NCBI GenBank assembly: GCA_002773795.1
Contig: PFAD01000008.1
Coordinates: forward strand, 206,481 to 270,480
From: Chlamydiae bacterium CG10_big_fil_rev_8_21_14_0_10_42_34
Lineage (GTDB): Bacteria > Chlamydiota > Chlamydiia > Chlamydiales > SM23-39
Length of the DNA: 64,000 nt
Direction of reading: 5' to 3'
Shown here in pieces: positions 15,493 to 31,502 of the stretch. A model generated the notes under the pieces. That model worked only from the letters and a program-made list of their open reading frames with translations. It did not search any database and was not told the origin of the DNA. Each line of letters starts with the position of its first letter. Position 1 is the first letter of the stretch. The position numbers and the translations under genes were made by a program.

Positions 15493-15933
15493 TCATTCTA
15501 TCGGATTTGTTTGATCTAGGAAAGTAAATTTTGTACCGCGGTCAATTCCATGTTTCTCGAACCAGCCTAATGGAACTTCTAACGCGTAAAGGGCAGGAGC
15601 GGTGCTTCTGTACCTAATTAGAGTTTTCCCAATGGGTAGCTCCATGTCTAAAACGTTAATGCAAGTTTTGTTTGCATCGAAAAAAGCGATTGAAAGGGGA
15701 ATGAGGGTGTTTTTCATCCAAAAAACAAGACGTTGTTCTTTTTCATAAATAAAGAGCATACCGTGGCCATCGGCAAGATACTCTCTTCCCATAAGCCCTT
15801 CTGCCCTCGTTTCATGGGTTTTGGCTATTTCTACCGTAAGAATTTCGTTTCCAACTTGAATTTGTGTTGCAAATGCAAAAGAAAAAGCCAGAAAAAAAAT
15901 GGATCTATACATATGATGCGCATCATATGACAA
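15493..15933 (-). CDS. DUF192 family protein (exported)
   Basis: N-terminal hydrophobic segment. GLMGRE...GMLFIY...FWMKNTLIPLSIAFFD...YALEVPLGW matches the DUF192/COG1430 pattern. Confidence 0.6.
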   Translation of the reverse strand: MSYDAHHMYRSIFFLAFSFAFATQIQVGNEILTVEIAKTHETRAEGLMGREYLADGHGMLFIYEKEQRLVFWMKNTLIPLSIAFFDANKTCINVLDMELPIGKTLIRYRSTAPALYALEVPLGWFEKHGIDRGTKFTFLDQTNPIE

Positions 15934-16904
15934 AACTATTTTTTTGGGGAGTTCTGCTTTGTTTATTTTCCCTTTTTGCAGACAAGGCTAACTTTTCGCC
16001 AAGTTTAGAGTTGCCAAGCGAGATTCAGATTCAAACCCCTTGGTTAACAGGCCCCCTATTTGCCCCGTCTGGAACAACGATCCCAGCAGGTCACTACAAC
16101 ATTGAGCCTTACGTTTTTGCCCTTGCAAATACAGCTAACTATGACTCGAACTGGGGAACAAAGGATATGCAAACCTTTTGGGGTAATTACACGCAAACTT
16201 CGATTCAGGTGGGGTTAAATAAATGGCTTGATTGCCAGATCAATCCGACCATTTATTATAACGTTACAAAGGGTGCGGCTCAGTGGGCAATTGGCGATAT
16301 GCCTGTTGGATTTGACATCCAGCTTTACCGAAGTGGTGTGAAGCTTACCGATTGGATTCACTCCGTCAAGCTCATCTTATTGGAAACAATCCCAATTGGT
16401 AATTACCAAAAGCTTAACCCAAACAAACTTAAGACAGATGTTGGCGGCGCCGGGTCATGGCAAACAGCGATTGGTCTTGCTTGGGGGAACCTTTGGTATA
16501 TTGGAAACAAACATTTCTACACGGCTCGCTTTACTTGCCAATATACTCTTCCTTCTCCGGTGAGTGTGAAGGGGGTAAATGCTTATGGCGGGGGGGCTCA
16601 AACTAAAGGTACAGTTTACCCAGCTCAAAAATTCCAGGTAGACATTGGGATGGAATTCACCCTCACCCAAAACTGGGTCCTTGCGATGGATCTCATCGGT
16701 GCATGGTTTGGGGAAACTCGCTTTAAAGGGGAGACCTTTGTCTCAAACACTGCGCCACCGGGCGCGCAATTTAGCATAGCTCCTGCAATTGAGTACAATT
16801 GGAATGAGAATGTAGGAATTGTCTTTGGGCCTTGGTTTACCATATCAGGGCGCAATGCCCTCCAGTTCCGAAGTGGTGTAATTGCGTTTAACTATTATAA
16901 ATAA
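15927..16904 (+). CDS. Putative outer membrane beta-barrel protein
   Basis: I start it at the internal ATG (MTKLFFWGVLLCLFSLFA signal peptide), which avoids overlapping the divergent gene. It is Gly/aromatic-rich with alternating strands. Confidence 0.5.
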   Translation: MTKLFFWGVLLCLFSLFADKANFSPSLELPSEIQIQTPWLTGPLFAPSGTTIPAGHYNIEPYVFALANTANYDSNWGTKDMQTFWGNYTQTSIQVGLNKWLDCQINPTIYYNVTKGAAQWAIGDMPVGFDIQLYRSGVKLTDWIHSVKLILLETIPIGNYQKLNPNKLKTDVGGAGSWQTAIGLAWGNLWYIGNKHFYTARFTCQYTLPSPVSVKGVNAYGGGAQTKGTVYPAQKFQVDIGMEFTLTQNWVLAMDLIGAWFGETRFKGETFVSNTAPPGAQFSIAPAIEYNWNENVGIVFGPWFTISGRNALQFRSGVIAFNYYK

Positions 16905-16974
16905 TAATTTTACTACCGTTCTTGTTTAAGGTTGATTGTGTTATAATTTCCGTAAATTAAACTGAGGTTTATTT

Positions 16975-17805
16975 ATGGGTAATATAAGCACTATTTTAGC
17001 TGCACTCTTATGTGCCGCAGCGCCAATAGGATCGGTTGAGATGGTTGATTCAAAAAAATCAATGTCGCAAGCGGATGAGCAATCAGGCAAGCAAGTGGTA
17101 TCATTGGTGCGCAAAGCGTATCAAAATGGAGATTATAACCAATTTTTTAAAGAGATGGATGGGGCATTTTCCCACGCTGATCTCGATGGATTTATCCAGA
17201 TGCGAGCGCAAGATATTCCCTTAGAATTTCAGTTAAAGTGGGAACAAAGATTTACCGATTTGCAAGAGCTGAAAAATAAGGATCTACTAGATGCATTATC
17301 TAGTAAAGACCGTTCTGTTTTTGCAGAAAAAGTGAGATCAATCGCATCAAATATTTCGACCCCGGAACAGCAAAAGGCAATTTCGAAGCTCAATTCTTTC
17401 ATCACAATGGCGCCAAACACTGGTGCAAACGAAGATGAAAATACGTTGATCAAGATTGATTTGGAGTATGAGTATAAGCTTTACCAATCACAGTTTCCGA
17501 CAAGCGATACTTCAACGCAGCAGCGCCATTATCAGCAAATTGCATTGCGGATGCAAAAGATGGATAAAATGCTTGAGGCATCAAAATCATTTAAAGATCA
17601 GTTTTTGAAAAGGGCGGTTCTCCTTGCGTCAAAGAATCTCGATAGCAGATTAGCTCGCAATTTAGATGGGGCAGATCTCAATGCTTTGGTAAAGGGGAAG
17701 GTAAAGCCGACTACTGAACTAGAGGAAAAGGTCTACTCGATTATCTCTTCGTATCAGGGGCAGTTTAACGATCTTATGAAAAATTTAAACAGTGTCTACC
17801 GATAA
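16975..17805 (+). CDS. Secreted hypothetical protein
   Basis: 276 aa with N-terminal signal-like MGNISTILAALLCAAAPIGS. The rest is helical and charged. A terminator hairpin follows. Confidence 0.5.
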   Translation: MGNISTILAALLCAAAPIGSVEMVDSKKSMSQADEQSGKQVVSLVRKAYQNGDYNQFFKEMDGAFSHADLDGFIQMRAQDIPLEFQLKWEQRFTDLQELKNKDLLDALSSKDRSVFAEKVRSIASNISTPEQQKAISKLNSFITMAPNTGANEDENTLIKIDLEYEYKLYQSQFPTSDTSTQQRHYQQIALRMQKMDKMLEASKSFKDQFLKRAVLLASKNLDSRLARNLDGADLNALVKGKVKPTTELEEKVYSIISSYQGQFNDLMKNLNSVYR

Positions 17806-17819
17806 AAGATAGGTTTATA

Positions 17820-17847
17820 GACGCTACGTTTGGGTAGCGTCTTATTT
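17820..17847 (+). terminator. Rho-independent terminator
   Basis: GACGCTAC-GTTTGG-GTAGCGTC hairpin followed by TTATTT, 15 nt after the stop at 17805. Confidence 0.6.
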
Positions 17848-17856
17848 AAGATGTCT

Positions 17857-18300
17857 TTATGAGTGCATCTCTTGTTTTGCTGGTGTATTCCTTAGGAATT
17901 CAAGCGGACTTACTGGACTACGGCTTTCTGCCAAAGCTGCACTTCTAATGTTAGAAATTTGTGAAGGACGGACTTGCAGCAATCTTTTTGTATCTTGTCT
18001 TTGAGCGTAGCATTCATAGAATGGGTAGGTTCCACACGTAATCGCAGTTAGCCCAATTGTGCTAATAAGTGCTATTGCGCGAGAGCTATTGTTAAGACAG
18101 CACATTTTGCACGCGCTTTGTTTCTCTTTTTGATATTCCATGATCCCGCTAGATCCACATAGATACTTCATTAAGCATTCACTGGCTTTTAGTTTTATTA
18201 TTTTAAAAGGTGATTTTGTGTGCTTAATTTTCTCATTAACTTTGTCTGAGAAATCTTGTGTTCTTGAATCTCGAAGCCTTGCGGCTGGTACTATAATCAT
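17857..18300 (-). CDS. Hypothetical protein (start uncertain)
   Basis: 147-aa ORF with one hydrophobic stretch (AIALISTIGLTAITCGTYPF) and a Cys cluster (ACKMCC). The flanks are AT-rich. Confidence 0.3.
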   Translation of the reverse strand: MIIVPAARLRDSRTQDFSDKVNEKIKHTKSPFKIIKLKASECLMKYLCGSSGIMEYQKEKQSACKMCCLNNSSRAIALISTIGLTAITCGTYPFYECYAQRQDTKRLLQVRPSQISNIRSAALAESRSPVSPLEFLRNTPAKQEMHS

Positions 18301-18437
18301 ATTATATTATCCCCGAATTAGTTATAATTAATATTATATCAAATTAATTATTAAATTAACAGCAATAATTAGGGTAATAGAGTATGTTGTATGAAAGTAT
18401 GTAAATCTTAGTTGTTATTGGGATAAGGAGGGAATAT

Positions 18438-18519
18438 TGCCCAGAATAGGACTCGAACCTACACGCCTTGCGGCACCAGAACCTAAATCTGGCATGTCTA
18501 CCAATTTCACCATCTGGGC
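18438..18519 (-). tRNA. tRNA-Leu (anticodon TAG)
   Basis: I folded the cloverleaf by hand: acceptor GCCCAGA/TCTGGGC, anticodon stem CCAGA/TCTGG with loop TTTAGGT, long variable arm, T-loop TTCGAGT. No CCA is encoded. Confidence 0.85.
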
Positions 18520-18699
18520 AAAAAGAAGAGTTTATGCTGCCGGCCCCTTTAATTCAATCACTTATCTTAAAATCCCTTCGACCCACAGTTTTCCTCTTTA
18601 ATAACGGGATGATCTGAAATGCGTGGGTATTTGAATTTATGTATATTAATTTCGTGATTTGTTATAATATTTATAATTAAACTATTAAATGGATTATAT

Positions 18700-19548
18700 A
18701 TGTCTACTTGTGGCTGTTTATCACGTTTGGGGTATCGTTTAGGGTTTTCTGATTACAAAGGGCGCTCAGATTTATACCCCCAGGTTGAGCTTAAAGCGTG
18801 TGAACTTGAGTCTTCTAAAGATAAAATAGATCAAAAGATCTGTGATTATATAGATGAAAAGGACTTTCTGAAATTCAAAAGAGAAAGCCTTTCTCAGCTT
18901 ATGCACCTAAAAGTTCCTGATACTGTTAAGACAGAAAAGCTAAAAATGATACAGGCGCTAGAAGAAAAAGATGTGAATGTGTTAAGCGATTGCCTTGTGT
19001 CACGAGGCCATCTCAGCTTTTTTTTCGATGTAGTTACATGGCCTGTCCGCATTCCTTCACGTCTTATTTTAAAAGCTTGCGGCTACTCACCTATGGTTAA
19101 AAAAACTGCAGTAAATTTGAAGATTCAAGAGGAGATCTCTTTCCTTGAGGCAGTAAACAGAGAAATGAATCGTAGAATTTTGAAGTTGGATCGTTCGGGG
19201 ATTGAATCTGTGTTAGATGGACTTAAATTAGCTCTTATCTCTCCAGATTTAGAGAAAAACCCGTACGTTCAAAAGTATGTTATTGGAAAAGGAAAAGATT
19301 TTGATGCAGCGCCTAAAGCAGAAAAAGTTGAAGAAAAAAAGGATGGGGGATTTGAAAGTCAGATTATCCAGCAACTTCTTGGACAAATTTGCCCTAACGG
19401 CATTGATAATGCAATTTCATCTGCATTCGCAACCAAAGAACCCAGAATTGTCCTCTTTCATCATTTGACCCAACAGCTATCTGCTGAGCAAAAACAGCAA
19501 GTGCATCAAGCGATGGGAGAAGATTTGGTTAGTAAGCTCTTTTGTTGA
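18700..19548 (+). CDS. Hypothetical protein
   Basis: 282-aa unopposed ORF. The N-terminus is MSTCGCLSRL and the C-terminus is ...SKLFC. I recognise no domain. Confidence 0.5.
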   Translation: MSTCGCLSRLGYRLGFSDYKGRSDLYPQVELKACELESSKDKIDQKICDYIDEKDFLKFKRESLSQLMHLKVPDTVKTEKLKMIQALEEKDVNVLSDCLVSRGHLSFFFDVVTWPVRIPSRLILKACGYSPMVKKTAVNLKIQEEISFLEAVNREMNRRILKLDRSGIESVLDGLKLALISPDLEKNPYVQKYVIGKGKDFDAAPKAEKVEEKKDGGFESQIIQQLLGQICPNGIDNAISSAFATKEPRIVLFHHLTQQLSAEQKQQVHQAMGEDLVSKLFC

Positions 19549-19550
19549 TG

Positions 19551-20012
19551 TTATTTATCAACGGCGTCGTAGACGGGTCTCGCAGTAAAGCCCACTTCAC
19601 GGATCGCAAAAATGACTTGTGCAATCGGTTCCCAGGGCGCTTTTCTATCAATATGTAAGAGAACTTCAGTTTTTGTTTTATCTTGAGGCAAAACCCCCAT
19701 TTGATACTGGCGTGCGAGCTCTTCTTGAATCGCTTCTATAGTTTGCATTGGGTATTCTTGAAATTCTGTAAGCCACTTAAATGACCCATTTTCTGCAATG
19801 CTTAGACTGATTTGCTCAATCTCTTTTGCCCTGAGCGATGCAGCCCCTTTTTCAGGTTTTAATTCCACGAGCTCCACTTCGGTGTCGTATAGAGCGGCTC
19901 TCGAGATGGCAAGGGTTGCAAAAAGGGCCAACATGAGGAACAAAAAGTCGATCATGGGGGCAAAGTTGAAGTTTTGAGAAGGCTTTAGCTCGTCGTGGGG
20001 GATCAGCTCCAT
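19551..20012 (-). CDS. tolR: ExbD/TolR family biopolymer transport protein
   Basis: Single N-terminal TM with NFAPMIDFLFLMLALFA. It lies 3 nt downstream of tolQ. Confidence 0.8.
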   Translation of the reverse strand: MELIPHDELKPSQNFNFAPMIDFLFLMLALFATLAISRAALYDTEVELVELKPEKGAASLRAKEIEQISLSIAENGSFKWLTEFQEYPMQTIEAIQEELARQYQMGVLPQDKTKTEVLLHIDRKAPWEPIAQVIFAIREVGFTARPVYDAVDK

Positions 20013-26286: not shown

Positions 26287-27048
26287 GTGTATAATATCCC
26301 ATTATCTTACGTTCCTTCCTTTGCATATGAGGCGGTTTGTGGCCTTTTTTGCTGTAGAAAGCGAAATGGCAAGGAACTAGATGAGCAAGATGCAACAGTT
26401 TCATCCGCCGAGAAGGTTGCAAAAGCTTCGCTTGCAGAGCCTCAAAATGCACCCTCAGCCCAGCCTATTTGCCCTAAAGTTACTTTGTGTCCGGTTCCGC
26501 CTAAACTTACAGTTACAGATTATCCCGATAAGATACAGCCTAAACTCATTTTGAAAGACTTTCAGCCATTGAATATTTGGGAAGTAGATACAAATGGTAA
26601 GCAGTGGCCTAAGGGTGGTGCGAAATTTTTGGTCGACACCTCTACAGGGAGAAAGTATCTCAAAGAAGACACGAGTTTGATTCGGAAAAAATGTGCTGCT
26701 CTTGTTTTAGGAACGCTGGTTATTCAATCTGTGACTGCAATCTTAAACATCGCCACCCGTGTTTTTGCAATTGTAAAACTTTTGTGCTTTTGGCAAGGGG
26801 AGCTCACCTTTAAAGCTAGACTTCTTGAAACGAGGGATCATTTCTTGAAAATAATCGCAACGCCGTTTGCTTTGATAGGAATGCTGTTTGCTTCAATGTA
26901 TGGCGTGATTCGCCCTTATGATGGAAGAAAGCTTTATGCAAGCATGGAAAGGTTGGCCTACGACAGGGCTGTTTTAGCGCCTTGTTTCCAGCCAAACCCA
27001 ACGCATCATCTTTTGGGTGGGAAAATCGATGGGCAAAATGTTTGGTAA
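26287..27048 (+). CDS. Hypothetical membrane protein, orphan family member 1 (paralog of 59953..60456)
   Basis: GTG start. It shares blocks with the second copy: WEVD, (V/I)D.STG.(K/R)YL, IR(K/R)K, two hydrophobic segments, DGRKL and APCF.P....HLLGG. Confidence 0.5.
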   Translation: MYNIPLSYVPSFAYEAVCGLFCCRKRNGKELDEQDATVSSAEKVAKASLAEPQNAPSAQPICPKVTLCPVPPKLTVTDYPDKIQPKLILKDFQPLNIWEVDTNGKQWPKGGAKFLVDTSTGRKYLKEDTSLIRKKCAALVLGTLVIQSVTAILNIATRVFAIVKLLCFWQGELTFKARLLETRDHFLKIIATPFALIGMLFASMYGVIRPYDGRKLYASMERLAYDRAVLAPCFQPNPTHHLLGGKIDGQNVW

Positions 27049-27578: not shown

Positions 27579-27857
27579 TTTTTATATCCTAAAGATGTCG
27601 GTTGTGTGTTGCAGGAACATGAGAGAAGAGAGTATCAGGTTGATGATAATGAAAAGAAATGCGGAAGATTTGTTTTTTTTGAAAATCAAAAAAATACAGT
27701 ACAAGTAAATTGCAAAGAGAAGAGCCATAAAAATCCTTTTTGTTCATCAAAGAGTTTTTTTTATTATTCGTCAAGGGCTCTTTTACTCCATTATTTAGCA
27801 CCTCTTATCCCGTTAAAGGGCTGGTTCTGCAATAGGGCTTAAAGCTGCCTCTGGTTT

Positions 27858-28988
27858 TTGGTTTCTAAACAAGGTATTCGTCCAGGAGATAAGCCAGAAA
27901 TCGTTCTGAGTGATTCTGATGTAGATGATAATTTGCAAGCCAACTTACATCAAAGAAATGTTGACGAAGCGGTATATTCTGAAGTGCCCCCCTTAGCCCC
28001 TCCTTTTTATGTTGACGAAGCGGTATATTCTGAAGTGCCCCCACTAGCGCCTGTTTTAGAAAGAGTGGAAAAGCCTAAAGAGGTGAGCCAAATTGCAAGG
28101 TTGCTCCGTGGTTTACACTCATCCGTTCTGGATATGAAGGCTGGTAAAGATAATAAAATTGTTGTCGATCAAATATCAGAAGTGGCCAAACAGCTAAAAC
28201 GCGCAAATTGTGATGTTAGCGAGTATAGAGATTTTTTTGGACTCGTACACACTTGCTATCATCATTTAAATTTAGATGAAATCGATCGAGATCTAACTCA
28301 AACTGAGCTTCGTTTAATAAGGCTTTTAAATGTTTTATGTGCCCGCTTGTTTTATAATAAAACGGGCAATCCCGAACTTTCTTTGGCGATAGCTTATTAT
28401 AATAAAGAGACGCGAGGGGATGTTTCAATTCTTAACTATTATCTCGAAAGCCCTGATTTTACAAAGAAGGGCCGGCCATTTAGTGGATGGATTGTGGAGA
28501 AAGCATGTTCATTTCTTTATCAGTACGATCGGAAGCGCACCCTCGAGGACTTTGTTAAATTTATTGGGCCCAAAAGGATGCTAGAGGCAAAGGGGAATTC
28601 AGGGAAAACTTTTCTGATGGAAGTTCTAAGCACAGAGTACATAAATAAAAAAATATGCACTGAAATTTTAGATGTTTTTCCAGGAGGTTTCAGCGACTCA
28701 ATGAAAAACTTGGGGCCCATATACCCTGACAAGAATATGAATGAGGCGTGGAATCGACAAGATGATTCGGGCAATACAGCATTGCTATTGCTTTTAAAAA
28801 ATAAGAAAATCAACAATGAGAGATCTTTAGGTTTTTTGCAAAACCTTGTTTTTTATTTCGCTGCGAATGGGGCTGATCTGGCAGTTAAAAATCACTCTGG
28901 CGAGATGCCTGAAGACTATTTTTGTATGGGGCCTAATGGCTTGAAAGTGCTAAAAGTGATCTATGAGAAAGTGAAGGGTAAGTTGTAA
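27858..28988 (+). CDS. Ankyrin-repeat protein with N-terminal tandem Tyr/Pro-motif repeat (putative effector)
   Basis: TTG start, uncertain. VDEAVYSEVPPLAP occurs twice. The C-terminal ankyrin-like repeats are GKTFLMEVL, GNTALLLLLKN and ANGADLAVKNHSGEMP. Confidence 0.55.
   Translation: MVSKQGIRPGDKPEIVLSDSDVDDNLQANLHQRNVDEAVYSEVPPLAPPFYVDEAVYSEVPPLAPVLERVEKPKEVSQIARLLRGLHSSVLDMKAGKDNKIVVDQISEVAKQLKRANCDVSEYRDFFGLVHTCYHHLNLDEIDRDLTQTELRLIRLLNVLCARLFYNKTGNPELSLAIAYYNKETRGDVSILNYYLESPDFTKKGRPFSGWIVEKACSFLYQYDRKRTLEDFVKFIGPKRMLEAKGNSGKTFLMEVLSTEYINKKICTEILDVFPGGFSDSMKNLGPIYPDKNMNEAWNRQDDSGNTALLLLLKNKKINNERSLGFLQNLVFYFAANGADLAVKNHSGEMPEDYFCMGPNGLKVLKVIYEKVKGKL
27960..28061 (+). repeat. 51-bp tandem duplication (2 units) inside the CDS
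   Basis: GTTGACGAAGCGGTATATTCTGAAGTGCCCCC is identical at 27960 and 28011. The unit tails have diverged (CTTAGCCCCTCC versus ACTAGCGCCTGT). Confidence 0.9.
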
Positions 28989-30182: not shown

Positions 30183-31502
30183 TTAGTCGTTGAAGAAGAA
30201 TTTGCCGAAATGGGTCATCGCAAAGCACTCTCTGCCGTTGCATGTGCCTGTTGCCACCATGCCCATCTCGTAGAGCCACTCAAAAATCGTCGCTTTTAAA
30301 ATGGCAATCTCTTCATCTCCATAGACCGGGAGTGAATATGCCCAGTGTTTGCCCACTCGTTTTAGCATGACGACAGAGTTTTCATTCAGAGGAACAAGGA
30401 CTCCCTTCAAGAACTCATCAAAGTAGACCCATTCCCCGTGAAGAACGCGTTTGATCGACTTTTCAGCCTCGCGCACATAGCGCTCGCCAACAGGCAGACT
30501 TAAGATGTGGTTGTGGGGATGACGGTATAGGTGCAAAGCTCTATTTTCTAAAGAAAGATCAAGCCACGCATCACCCGCATCCAATGTCTTTAGTTTTCCA
30601 TCGGAATACTCGGCGAGCTTAACTAGGCAAAGCTTTTGAACTTCGGGAGAATTTTCTACTTGAAGTGCCTTTTTTTTCGCCTTGAGCAATAGGTCACTCA
30701 TCTTTTCGAGAAAGGCAAAATCAGTCTCGCTGCGGCGTTGGATGGCATCTGTTGATGGGATACACGGCGTCTGGGTATCTCGGTAGAATTGGAGATATTC
30801 TTTCCACTCATGAAAGGGACTGACGTACTCTAGCCAATGATCATCCTCTTTTTCATAGCAAAGGCAGCAAACAAAGTTAAATTCTAAAATGAGGAGAATC
30901 TCTTCAAAATCAACTCGTTTTAAGTTGTATTTGGAGATCAAATCGGTAGAGGAGATCTTAAAATCAGGCGCGGATAAGACATCATTCATGATGTCGTTGA
31001 GGATCGGTTCTCCAAAGTTTAGCTCCATAAGGTAGCGCTGAAAGATGTGAGGGGTGAGTAGGTATCTTTCTACAATGGACTCGAAGATGTTGTTCGACGT
31101 GCGCGGAATGGAGTACCAAGTGGGGAGAAGGTGGATCGGTACTTTTTTCAAGAGTCCTTGAACAAACTCCATGTCAGGCTTAAATTGTGGGTCGAAACGG
31201 TGGATTTGGAATTCGAAGTATTTCCGTTTTTCTTTGTCTACGCAGATAGTGTCACCTTGAACAGAAACAAGACCTGTCGAGGAGAGCTTGTTGAGAGATT
31301 TTGTTAATTCGTGCTCTTCACAGCTAAGGGCGCGGAGTAATTTTTTCTGAGAGATTTTTAAGGGGCTGTAGAGGATCTCTTCGAGTACTTCGATGTCGAT
31401 GGTGGAAAAATCGGACATCATCATCCGGTTTTCGATATCTTGCTGACAGTTGTAGTCGGCAAGGTTCACTTTATTTTTTCGTGCGGGACTTAGCTCTAAC
31501 AT
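30183..31502 (-). CDS. Hypothetical protein (439 aa)
   Basis: Long unopposed ORF downstream of rarA in the same orientation. I recognise no motif. Confidence 0.5.
   Translation of the reverse strand: MLELSPARKNKVNLADYNCQQDIENRMMMSDFSTIDIEVLEEILYSPLKISQKKLLRALSCEEHELTKSLNKLSSTGLVSVQGDTICVDKEKRKYFEFQIHRFDPQFKPDMEFVQGLLKKVPIHLLPTWYSIPRTSNNIFESIVERYLLTPHIFQRYLMELNFGEPILNDIMNDVLSAPDFKISSTDLISKYNLKRVDFEEILLILEFNFVCCLCYEKEDDHWLEYVSPFHEWKEYLQFYRDTQTPCIPSTDAIQRRSETDFAFLEKMSDLLLKAKKKALQVENSPEVQKLCLVKLAEYSDGKLKTLDAGDAWLDLSLENRALHLYRHPHNHILSLPVGERYVREAEKSIKRVLHGEWVYFDEFLKGVLVPLNENSVVMLKRVGKHWAYSLPVYGDEEIAILKATIFEWLYEMGMVATGTCNGRECFAMTHFGKFFFND

Follow-up and report, generated by a model that had tools for sequence, protein, structure and literature searches.

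A tandemly duplicated tyrosine/proline motif in an orphan ankyrin-repeat protein of an environmental chlamydia

We analyzed a stretch of 64,000 nucleotides (hereafter the window) from contig PFAD01000008.1 of Chlamydiae bacterium CG10_big_fil_rev_8_21_14_0_10_42_34, and within it a 51-bp direct repeat near the 5' end of an orphan gene that encodes a 376-aa protein. The repeat duplicates 17 codons in a segment that is very probably translated, as judged from its coding properties, and each unit carries a tyrosine motif (E-A-V-Y-S-E-V) followed by a proline motif (P-P-L-A-P). Our best explanation, which we hold tentatively and with less than even confidence, is that a cassette of linear motifs was duplicated in an ankyrin protein that is a candidate for a host-directed role. 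The repeat and the gene that carries it have the following coordinates:

27858-28988, + strand: open reading frame (ORF) of the orphan gene, 376 aa, 43 kDa protein, first possible start TTG at 27858
27960-28010, + strand: repeat copy 1, 51 bp, 17 codons, VDEAVYSEVPPLAPPFY
28011-28061, + strand: repeat copy 2, 51 bp, 17 codons, VDEAVYSEVPPLAPVLE
27999-28010, + strand: PPFY, a PPxY-type pattern in the copy 1 tail only, at the junction with copy 2 (regular expression and direct reading)
27579-27857, no strand assigned: divergent intergenic region between dsbB (- strand) and the orphan gene (+ strand), no consensus promoter found on the + strand

The repeat and its reading frame

Direct reading of the sequence gave an in-frame tandem duplication on the + strand, in which each 51-nt unit opens with GTTGACGAAGCGGTATATTCTGAAGTGCCCCC (at 27960 and 28011). 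The two copies are identical over the first 32 nt, or 34 nt if the preceding AT is counted, and all 8 differences between them fall in the last 19 nt; under a uniform-divergence model, the probability that all 8 cluster outside the first 32 nt is ~1e-4. The repeat finder returned 49 nt at 90% identity and 51-nt spacing. The window has exactly two occurrences of the 32-mer, and none of 100 shuffles contained a match with 3 mismatches allowed. Tandem Repeats Finder did not list the 51-bp repeat for the window, which is probably explained by the presence of just two copies and a diverged tail. We concluded that the repeat is real and non-random, in agreement with a sequence-only reading of this DNA that had described a 51-bp direct repeat with identical first 32 nt and diverged tails. 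The same reading had placed two copies of the motif near the N-terminus, and both copies do translate to VDEAVYSEVPPLAP (residues 35-48 and 52-65 of the 376-aa ORF). The three-residue tails are wholly diverged (PFY in copy 1, VLE in copy 2). There are no paralogues and no additional motif copies within the 64-kb window.

The repeat had also been taken to lie inside the protein. The alternative is that the true start is ATG 28134 (residue M93), downstream of the repeat, so that the 51-bp repeat would be an untranslated regulatory or 5'-untranslated region element. ATG 28134 is the sole in-frame ATG, the TTG at 27858 has no recognisable ribosome-binding site, and a promoter scan of the + strand upstream of the ORF found no sigma-70 consensus; most window genes lack a Shine-Dalgarno sequence anyway. 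Against an untranslated repeat stand the differences between the copies themselves. Three of them lie inside the 42-nt motif (ccc/cca, tta/cta and gcc/gcg), and all three are synonymous in the frame of the ORF, which holds for no other of the six frames; with ~26% of random substitutions being synonymous, 3 of 3 would be expected by chance at ~0.26^3 = 0.018. The coding score, a codon-usage log-odds trained on 30 genes of the window, becomes positive exactly at 27858, is the best of the six frames throughout the ORF, and is equal on either side of ATG 28134 (0.143 per codon upstream and 0.141 downstream). First codon position GC is 0.65 in the N-terminal part. An in-frame stop lies at 27840-27842 and the frame is open from 27843, and the 81-98 codons open upstream of ATG 28134 have a chance probability of 0.002-0.007. 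The 376-aa product was called in 3 of 3 recorded protein versions (NCBI/ENA, JGI/IMG and ENA), each by an independent gene caller. Because of the changes that are synonymous only in this frame, the equal coding score, the long open frame and the gene calls, the repeat is very probably translated, and we consider a start at ATG 28134 to be very improbable.

The orphan protein and its genomic setting

The protein was divided into three regions:

27858-28073, + strand: N-terminal residues 1-72, acidic, proline-rich, without predicted secondary structure
28074-28592, + strand: central all-helical region, residues ~73-245, from a low-confidence model, no detectable relatives
28593-28985, + strand: degenerate ankyrin-repeat region (Pfam sub-threshold, HMMER search and alignment)

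Residues 1-72 have a net charge of -8, nine prolines (12.5%) and three tyrosines (Y40, Y51 and Y57), a composition that is borderline on the charge-hydropathy criterion. In an AlphaFold2 single-sequence model (predicted local distance difference test, pLDDT, 41, too low to support a fold search) residues 1-63 have no secondary structure and the remainder is all-helical. On this model the N-terminal segment is probably disordered. There is no signal peptide and no transmembrane segment (maximum 19-residue Kyte-Doolittle mean 1.02), and the protein is predicted to be soluble.

The clearest ankyrin unit spans residues 299-350 (DDSGNTALLLLL...AANGADLAVKNHSGE) and a weaker GNSGKTFLMEVL unit starts from ~246, giving ~2-3 degenerate repeats in all. 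Profile searches fell short of their thresholds: no Pfam ankyrin model reached its gathering score (Ank_4 scored 13.7 bits, with 22.7 required, E=0.085), the NCBIfam search of the protein gave nothing, and the best match in the PDB sequence search, where nothing was above threshold, was the MIB1 ankyrin domain (E=0.097). In an exhaustive phmmer/HMMER search of 1.8 billion representative proteins, residues 299-350 aligned with 17 repeat units in a protein of 2562 aa (E=3.6e-20); the same residues also matched a second giant ankyrin protein (E=3.5e-09). Both are massive ankyrin-repeat proteins (Ank_2/Ank at E<1e-100) from the abalone Haliotis rufescens, and the pairwise alignment displays the ankyrin signature N.QD..GNTAL...F..NGAD..KN..G. 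By these comparisons the C-terminus carries degenerate ankyrin repeats, and the C-terminal ankyrin repeats named in the sequence-only reading are borne out in that degenerate form.

The genome is an environmental Chlamydiota metagenome-assembled genome (MAG), with an SmpB up to 85% identical to those of Chlamydiota MAGs and with recF-dnaN-smpB synteny; the gene neighbours are recF, dnaN, dsbB, smpB, terC and mgsA. With SmpB as anchor we collected 51 chlamydial loci from GTDB genomes, all of them environmental Chlamydiota MAGs. In most relatives smpB adjoins dnaN-recF. The closest relatives (loci L001, L003, L007 and L017) have the order smpB-dsbB-dnaN, with a gap of ~200 bp between smpB and dsbB in L001 and L003, and the order in the window is smpB-[orphan gene]-dsbB-[253-aa ORF]-dnaN. 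The orphan gene is absent from the syntenic smpB-dsbB/dnaN junction in the 51 relatives, L001 and L003 included. A word-indexed search of 5.8 billion proteins matched the protein only to itself, the exhaustive HMMER search found only itself and generic ankyrin proteins, a metagenome contig scan with six peptide patterns found no relative, and tblastn against 80 smpB-anchored loci gave no match. A 188-aa ORF in locus L004, in the same position and orientation beside smpB, was rejected as a counterpart, being not detectably related. By sequence searches, then, the gene is a true orphan and lineage-specific.

The smpB-dnaN junction is variable among chlamydiae, with unrelated lineage-specific genes in different genomes (L012 10453-14184, L030 10621-12984, L048 10475-13129, L011 744-2729 and L035 10516-10815), and behaves as a plasticity spot. 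Among its contents in the various genomes are a glycine-rich protein of 1243 aa, one of 787 aa whose N-terminus is signal-like, ORFs that resemble hydrolases, small membrane proteins and a short helix-turn-helix protein. The window has a second lineage-specific ORF, of 253 aa (26287-27048, + strand), in the interval from dsbB to dnaN. Neither Pfam nor NCBIfam gives a match for it, nor does tblastn in any related locus; its N-terminal part is proline-rich, and its hydrophobic blocks (a long one at residues ~135-170 and another at ~186-208) recall the bilobed hydrophobic domain that chlamydial inclusion-membrane proteins carry. Pfam likewise gives no match for four consecutive ORFs at 15864-19548 (346, 276, 147 and 282 aa), which may also be lineage- or chlamydia-specific. 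On the other side of the orphan gene is a 439-aa protein (30183-31502, - strand) that adjoins terC/smpB in almost every chlamydial locus examined; it belongs to no Pfam family and has only weak N-terminal winged-helix (Sta1/Lrs14-like) matches. Locus L004 also contains, at 18319-19785 (- strand), a 488-aa ORF in which a ~20-residue unit (TCAAPGAFMKSVAELAARE) is repeated about five times in tandem, unrelated to the orphan protein.

The 90% protein cluster of the orphan has three members, two of which were traced to contigs. The source samples are JGI 3300004208 and ENA ERZ27293414. Over 5476 nt the JGI contig shows 100% identity with the window, and the ENA contig has one mismatch in 7566 nt, at 27894, a non-synonymous change in codon 13 of the orphan gene (Pro to Thr). 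Three independent assemblies share the repeat, which is therefore not an assembly artefact. The sequence-only reading had suggested that copy number may vary between strains; the three assemblies, which sample one strain, all have two copies. The near identity of the copies had been ascribed to recent duplication. The identity of the first 34 nt agrees with this; the three synonymous changes within the next 10 nt fit an older duplication, and the pattern suggests that the duplication is older and that its 5' part was later homogenised or constrained.

These observations bear on the main rival of the linear-motif cassette, a strong one, in which a permissive, disordered stretch of a young orphan gene gained a functionless 51-bp duplication by replication slippage, the motif has no specific partner and the resemblance to docking motifs is coincidental. 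We regard this as possible, if on the doubtful side. Codon adaptation of the gene is below average (0.14 per codon, compared with 0.225 in the window genes), and the junction where it sits collects lineage-specific genes generally in relatives. Duplication is tolerated in disordered segments (PMC3593179). The unit is present only twice, with no variation between assemblies, and the motif was defined post hoc. Against slippage stands the distribution of the changes: 3 of 3 differences in the motif are synonymous while the tails diverged (PFY against VLE), the signature of protein-level selection on the motif, and the clustering of the 8 differences outside the first 32 nt is improbable under uniform divergence.

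Candidate readers of the motif

Chlamydiae are an obligate intracellular lineage with type III secretion. With a repeat that is very probably translated, a probably disordered segment around it, an ankyrin-like tail and a chlamydial genome, a host-directed reading of the cassette is plausible. The protein would be host-directed and presumably type III secreted. Its ankyrin end, a eukaryote-type protein-binding scaffold, would hold a host partner, and the N-terminal cassette of this strain-specific gene would present two compound motifs, E-A-V-Y-S-E-V and then P-P-L-A-P, plus PPFY in the copy 1 tail. Host modular domains would dock on these motifs and the duplication would double the valency. 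The candidate readers are SH2 domains, if the tyrosine is phosphorylated, SH3 or WW domains, which would bind the prolines, and adaptor mu-subunits, which would bind YxxPhi. We infer that the phosphotyrosine route is the leading single candidate among them; secretion, docking in the host and phosphorylation are likewise inferred.

The grammar of the motif was compared with that of EPIYA-type effectors. EPIYA-related motifs include ENIYE (Tarp), ESIYE and EDLYA (AnkA; 27- and 17-aa segments), EHIYD (Tir) and EPVYA (LspA) (PMC3593179), and they lie in disordered, tandemly duplicated segments of known effectors (PMC3593179; PMC13457649). According to a 2026 perspective, the EPIYA grammar calls for E at position -3, I/L at position -1 and A/E at position +1 (PMC13457649). 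In E-A-V-Y-S the E at -3 fits this grammar and the V at -1, a beta-branched hydrophobic residue, fits it approximately, as in the EPVYA of LspA. With the EPIYA effectors as a group (CagA, Tarp, Tir, BepD-F, AnkA and LspA1/2) the orphan protein shares a short tyrosine motif that has Glu at position -3 and is aliphatic at position -1, an acidic and probably disordered region in which a short segment is tandemly duplicated, and an origin in an intracellular bacterium with a protein-injection system. It differs from them in having no sequence homology, two copies only and a likely host that is a protist, not an animal.

The sequence-only reading had compared the design with CagA, Tarp and AnkA. 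That comparison holds for the combination of a tandem tyrosine motif with an ankyrin tail; it fails on homology, on the order of domains relative to AnkA and on positions -2 and +1 of the motif. AnkA of Anaplasma phagocytophilum likewise has ankyrin repeats and tandem tyrosine motifs in one protein, and its EPIYA-B segment has the same length as the unit here, 17 aa. AnkA is a type IV secretion substrate of 160-190 kDa with ~11 ankyrin repeats in its N-terminal two-thirds and C-terminal EPIYA segments, whereas the orphan protein, at 43 kDa, has the reverse domain order, ~2-3 degenerate repeats and no detectable homology to AnkA. An AnkA orthologue was ruled out by this reversed architecture and by the protein searches. 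Tarp of Chlamydia trachomatis comes from the same phylum and has tandem tyrosine repeats in its N-terminal part, with a proline-rich element nearby, and its repeat number differs between serovars; unlike the orphan protein, it has ~50-aa repeats with ENIYE, actin-binding domains and no ankyrin repeats. No Tarp-like match was found in either protein search, in Pfam or in NCBIfam, and a Tarp orthologue was ruled out.

The heptapeptide around Tyr474 of Tir from enteropathogenic Escherichia coli is EHIYDEV. EAVYSEV has the same E-x-[I/V]-Y-x-E-V spacing, with 4 of 7 positions alike. Tir is a membrane-inserted intimin receptor, unlike the protein described here, and the Asp at +1 of its EHIYD core, which matters for Nck SH2 binding, is a Ser in the orphan protein. 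The ankyrin proteins of amoeba-associated bacteria (Chlamydiae, Legionella and Amoebophilus) offer a further comparison: ankyrin repeats are enriched in amoeba-associated bacteria, Chlamydiae among them (PMC7542358), and an ankyrin scaffold encoded by a lineage-specific gene of an intracellular bacterium is common to both. The best ankyrin matches here are eukaryotic (the giant Haliotis proteins), as with eukaryote-like ankyrin proteins. Those proteins mostly pass Pfam thresholds and form expanded families, whereas the protein here is a singleton with degenerate repeats.

In the most specific form of the phosphotyrosine route, host kinases would phosphorylate Y40 and Y57 (EAVYSEV) once the protein is delivered, and these residues would then bring in SH2 proteins of the host in the manner of CagA, Tarp, Tir and AnkA. 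The resemblance of E at -3 and V at -1 to EHIYD (Tir), EPVYA (LspA) and ESIYE/EDLYA (AnkA), the acidic context, the tandem duplication and the probably disordered region speak for it. There are precedents in the chlamydial phylum, since Tarp and TepP are Chlamydia type III effectors that are tyrosine-phosphorylated by Src/Abl kinases (PMC6717882). Amoebae possess tyrosine kinases and SH2 proteins (PMC4053784), and Amoebozoan hosts would be able to write and read phosphotyrosine. On the other side, there is no homology to known phosphotyrosine effectors, positions -2 and +1 misfit, and phosphorylation-independent motif classes fit equally well. We judge this specific form rather unlikely.

Phosphorylation-independent docking was weighed in the same way. 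Three patterns are literally present: YSEV at residues 40-43 and 57-60, PPLAP at 44-48 and 61-65, and PPFY at 48-51, which we take, from general knowledge of linear motifs, to belong to the YxxPhi, PxxP and PPxY classes, respectively. YSEV might then bind adaptor mu-subunits, PPLAP SH3 domains and PPFY the WW domains of Nedd4-type ubiquitin ligases. PPFY is present in a single copy, the PxxP is not flanked by the basic residue that canonical SH3 ligands have, and all these patterns are short and frequent. Docking of this kind is, in our estimate, an unlikely explanation.

Several results weigh against the linear-motif cassette as a whole. The motif has Ala and not Pro at -2, and Ser and not Ala/Glu at +1. 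It is low in information and was defined from this protein itself: the strict pattern E.[VIL]Y.[ED][VIL] occurs in one other open frame in 360,000 residues of chlamydial open frames, a count that is uninformative because the pattern was taken from this protein. The disorder call is weak because the model is of low confidence throughout. With the Shine-Dalgarno sequence absent from most window genes, ribosome-binding sites cannot fix the start codon. The identical two-copy repeat in all three assemblies, all of one strain, gives no variation.

The SH2 protein nearby and implications

The sequence-only reading had drawn attention to an SH2-like protein about 7 kb from the repeat:

35639-36496, + strand: SH2 protein (Pfam sub-threshold, family alignment, AlphaFold2 model and Foldseek)

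The Pfam SH2 model scored 18.6 bits on this ORF, below its threshold of 21, and the ORF can be aligned with HSH2D and SOCS4 over their N-terminal SH2 signature. Its family comprises at least 126 protein clusters in environmental chlamydiae, with members of ~270-290 aa, some of which carry the NCBI title 'SH2 domain-containing protein [Chlamydiota]'. W177, R183 and R201 are invariant in 34 of 34 aligned members and include the phosphotyrosine-binding arginines (alphaA and betaB 'FLVR'). In the AlphaFold2 model built from the 34-sequence alignment (pLDDT 84.6), the SH2 fold is the C-terminal domain of these ~280-aa proteins (residues ~170-285 in the window's ORF), after an unassigned N-terminal part of ~165 residues. 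The top 50 Foldseek matches in the PDB are without exception SH2 domains (SOCS2, p85, Csk, Vav2 and SHP2 among them), with a probability of 1.00 and a target template modelling score of up to 0.68. The model thus indicates a genuine SH2 fold, and the earlier suspicion of an SH2-like protein was correct. A keyword search of the literature surfaced no paper pairing SH2 with Chlamydiota, and chlamydiae are nowhere mentioned in a paper on bacterial SH2 (PMC6208348).

The earlier suggestion that this protein might read the repeat itself is unsupported. The motif could in principle be a ligand of the bacterium's own SH2 protein, which is a genuine SH2 fold by the model and has both phosphotyrosine-binding arginines invariant. 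The SH2 gene, however, is found 6-7 kb from smpB in L001 (2996-3835), L003 (3182-4036), L002, L006, L017, L018 and others, all without the orphan gene. This shared position means that the proximity is ancestral synteny and coincidental. More than 120 protein clusters attest to the conservation of the family in environmental chlamydiae, and since it is widespread without the orphan gene, its function cannot depend on the orphan protein. A ligand role toward the bacterium's own SH2 protein is hardly credible. The presence of a conserved SH2 protein in the same genome does indicate that phosphotyrosine biology matters to the organism, and this favors phosphorylation of the motif by host kinases.

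Elsewhere in the window, a 901-aa fusion (40429-43134, + strand) joins ADP-forming acyl-CoA synthetase-like domains to a C-terminal GNAT acetyltransferase, the architecture of Pat-type protein lysine acetyltransferases.

The farthest-reaching version of the phosphotyrosine route is that a duplicated phosphotyrosine docking cassette evolved in an orphan gene to engage a protist host through its tyrosine-kinase/SH2 circuitry, in a genome that has an SH2 'reader' family of its own. We consider this quite improbable. The nine EPIYA-type effectors in a 2013 review were all from animal pathogens (PMC3593179); if this version were true, EPIYA-type host mimicry would extend beyond animal pathogens, and the motif would have been caught at the two-copy stage of its birth. 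At present the repeat is a well-defined and cheaply testable candidate, not a discovery, in one orphan gene of one uncultured strain. If it is a working docking motif, it would be the first candidate tyrosine-motif effector from an environmental chlamydia, and it would represent an early motif expansion in which the core is kept via synonymous change while the spacers diverge, the model proposed for CagA, Tarp and AnkA.

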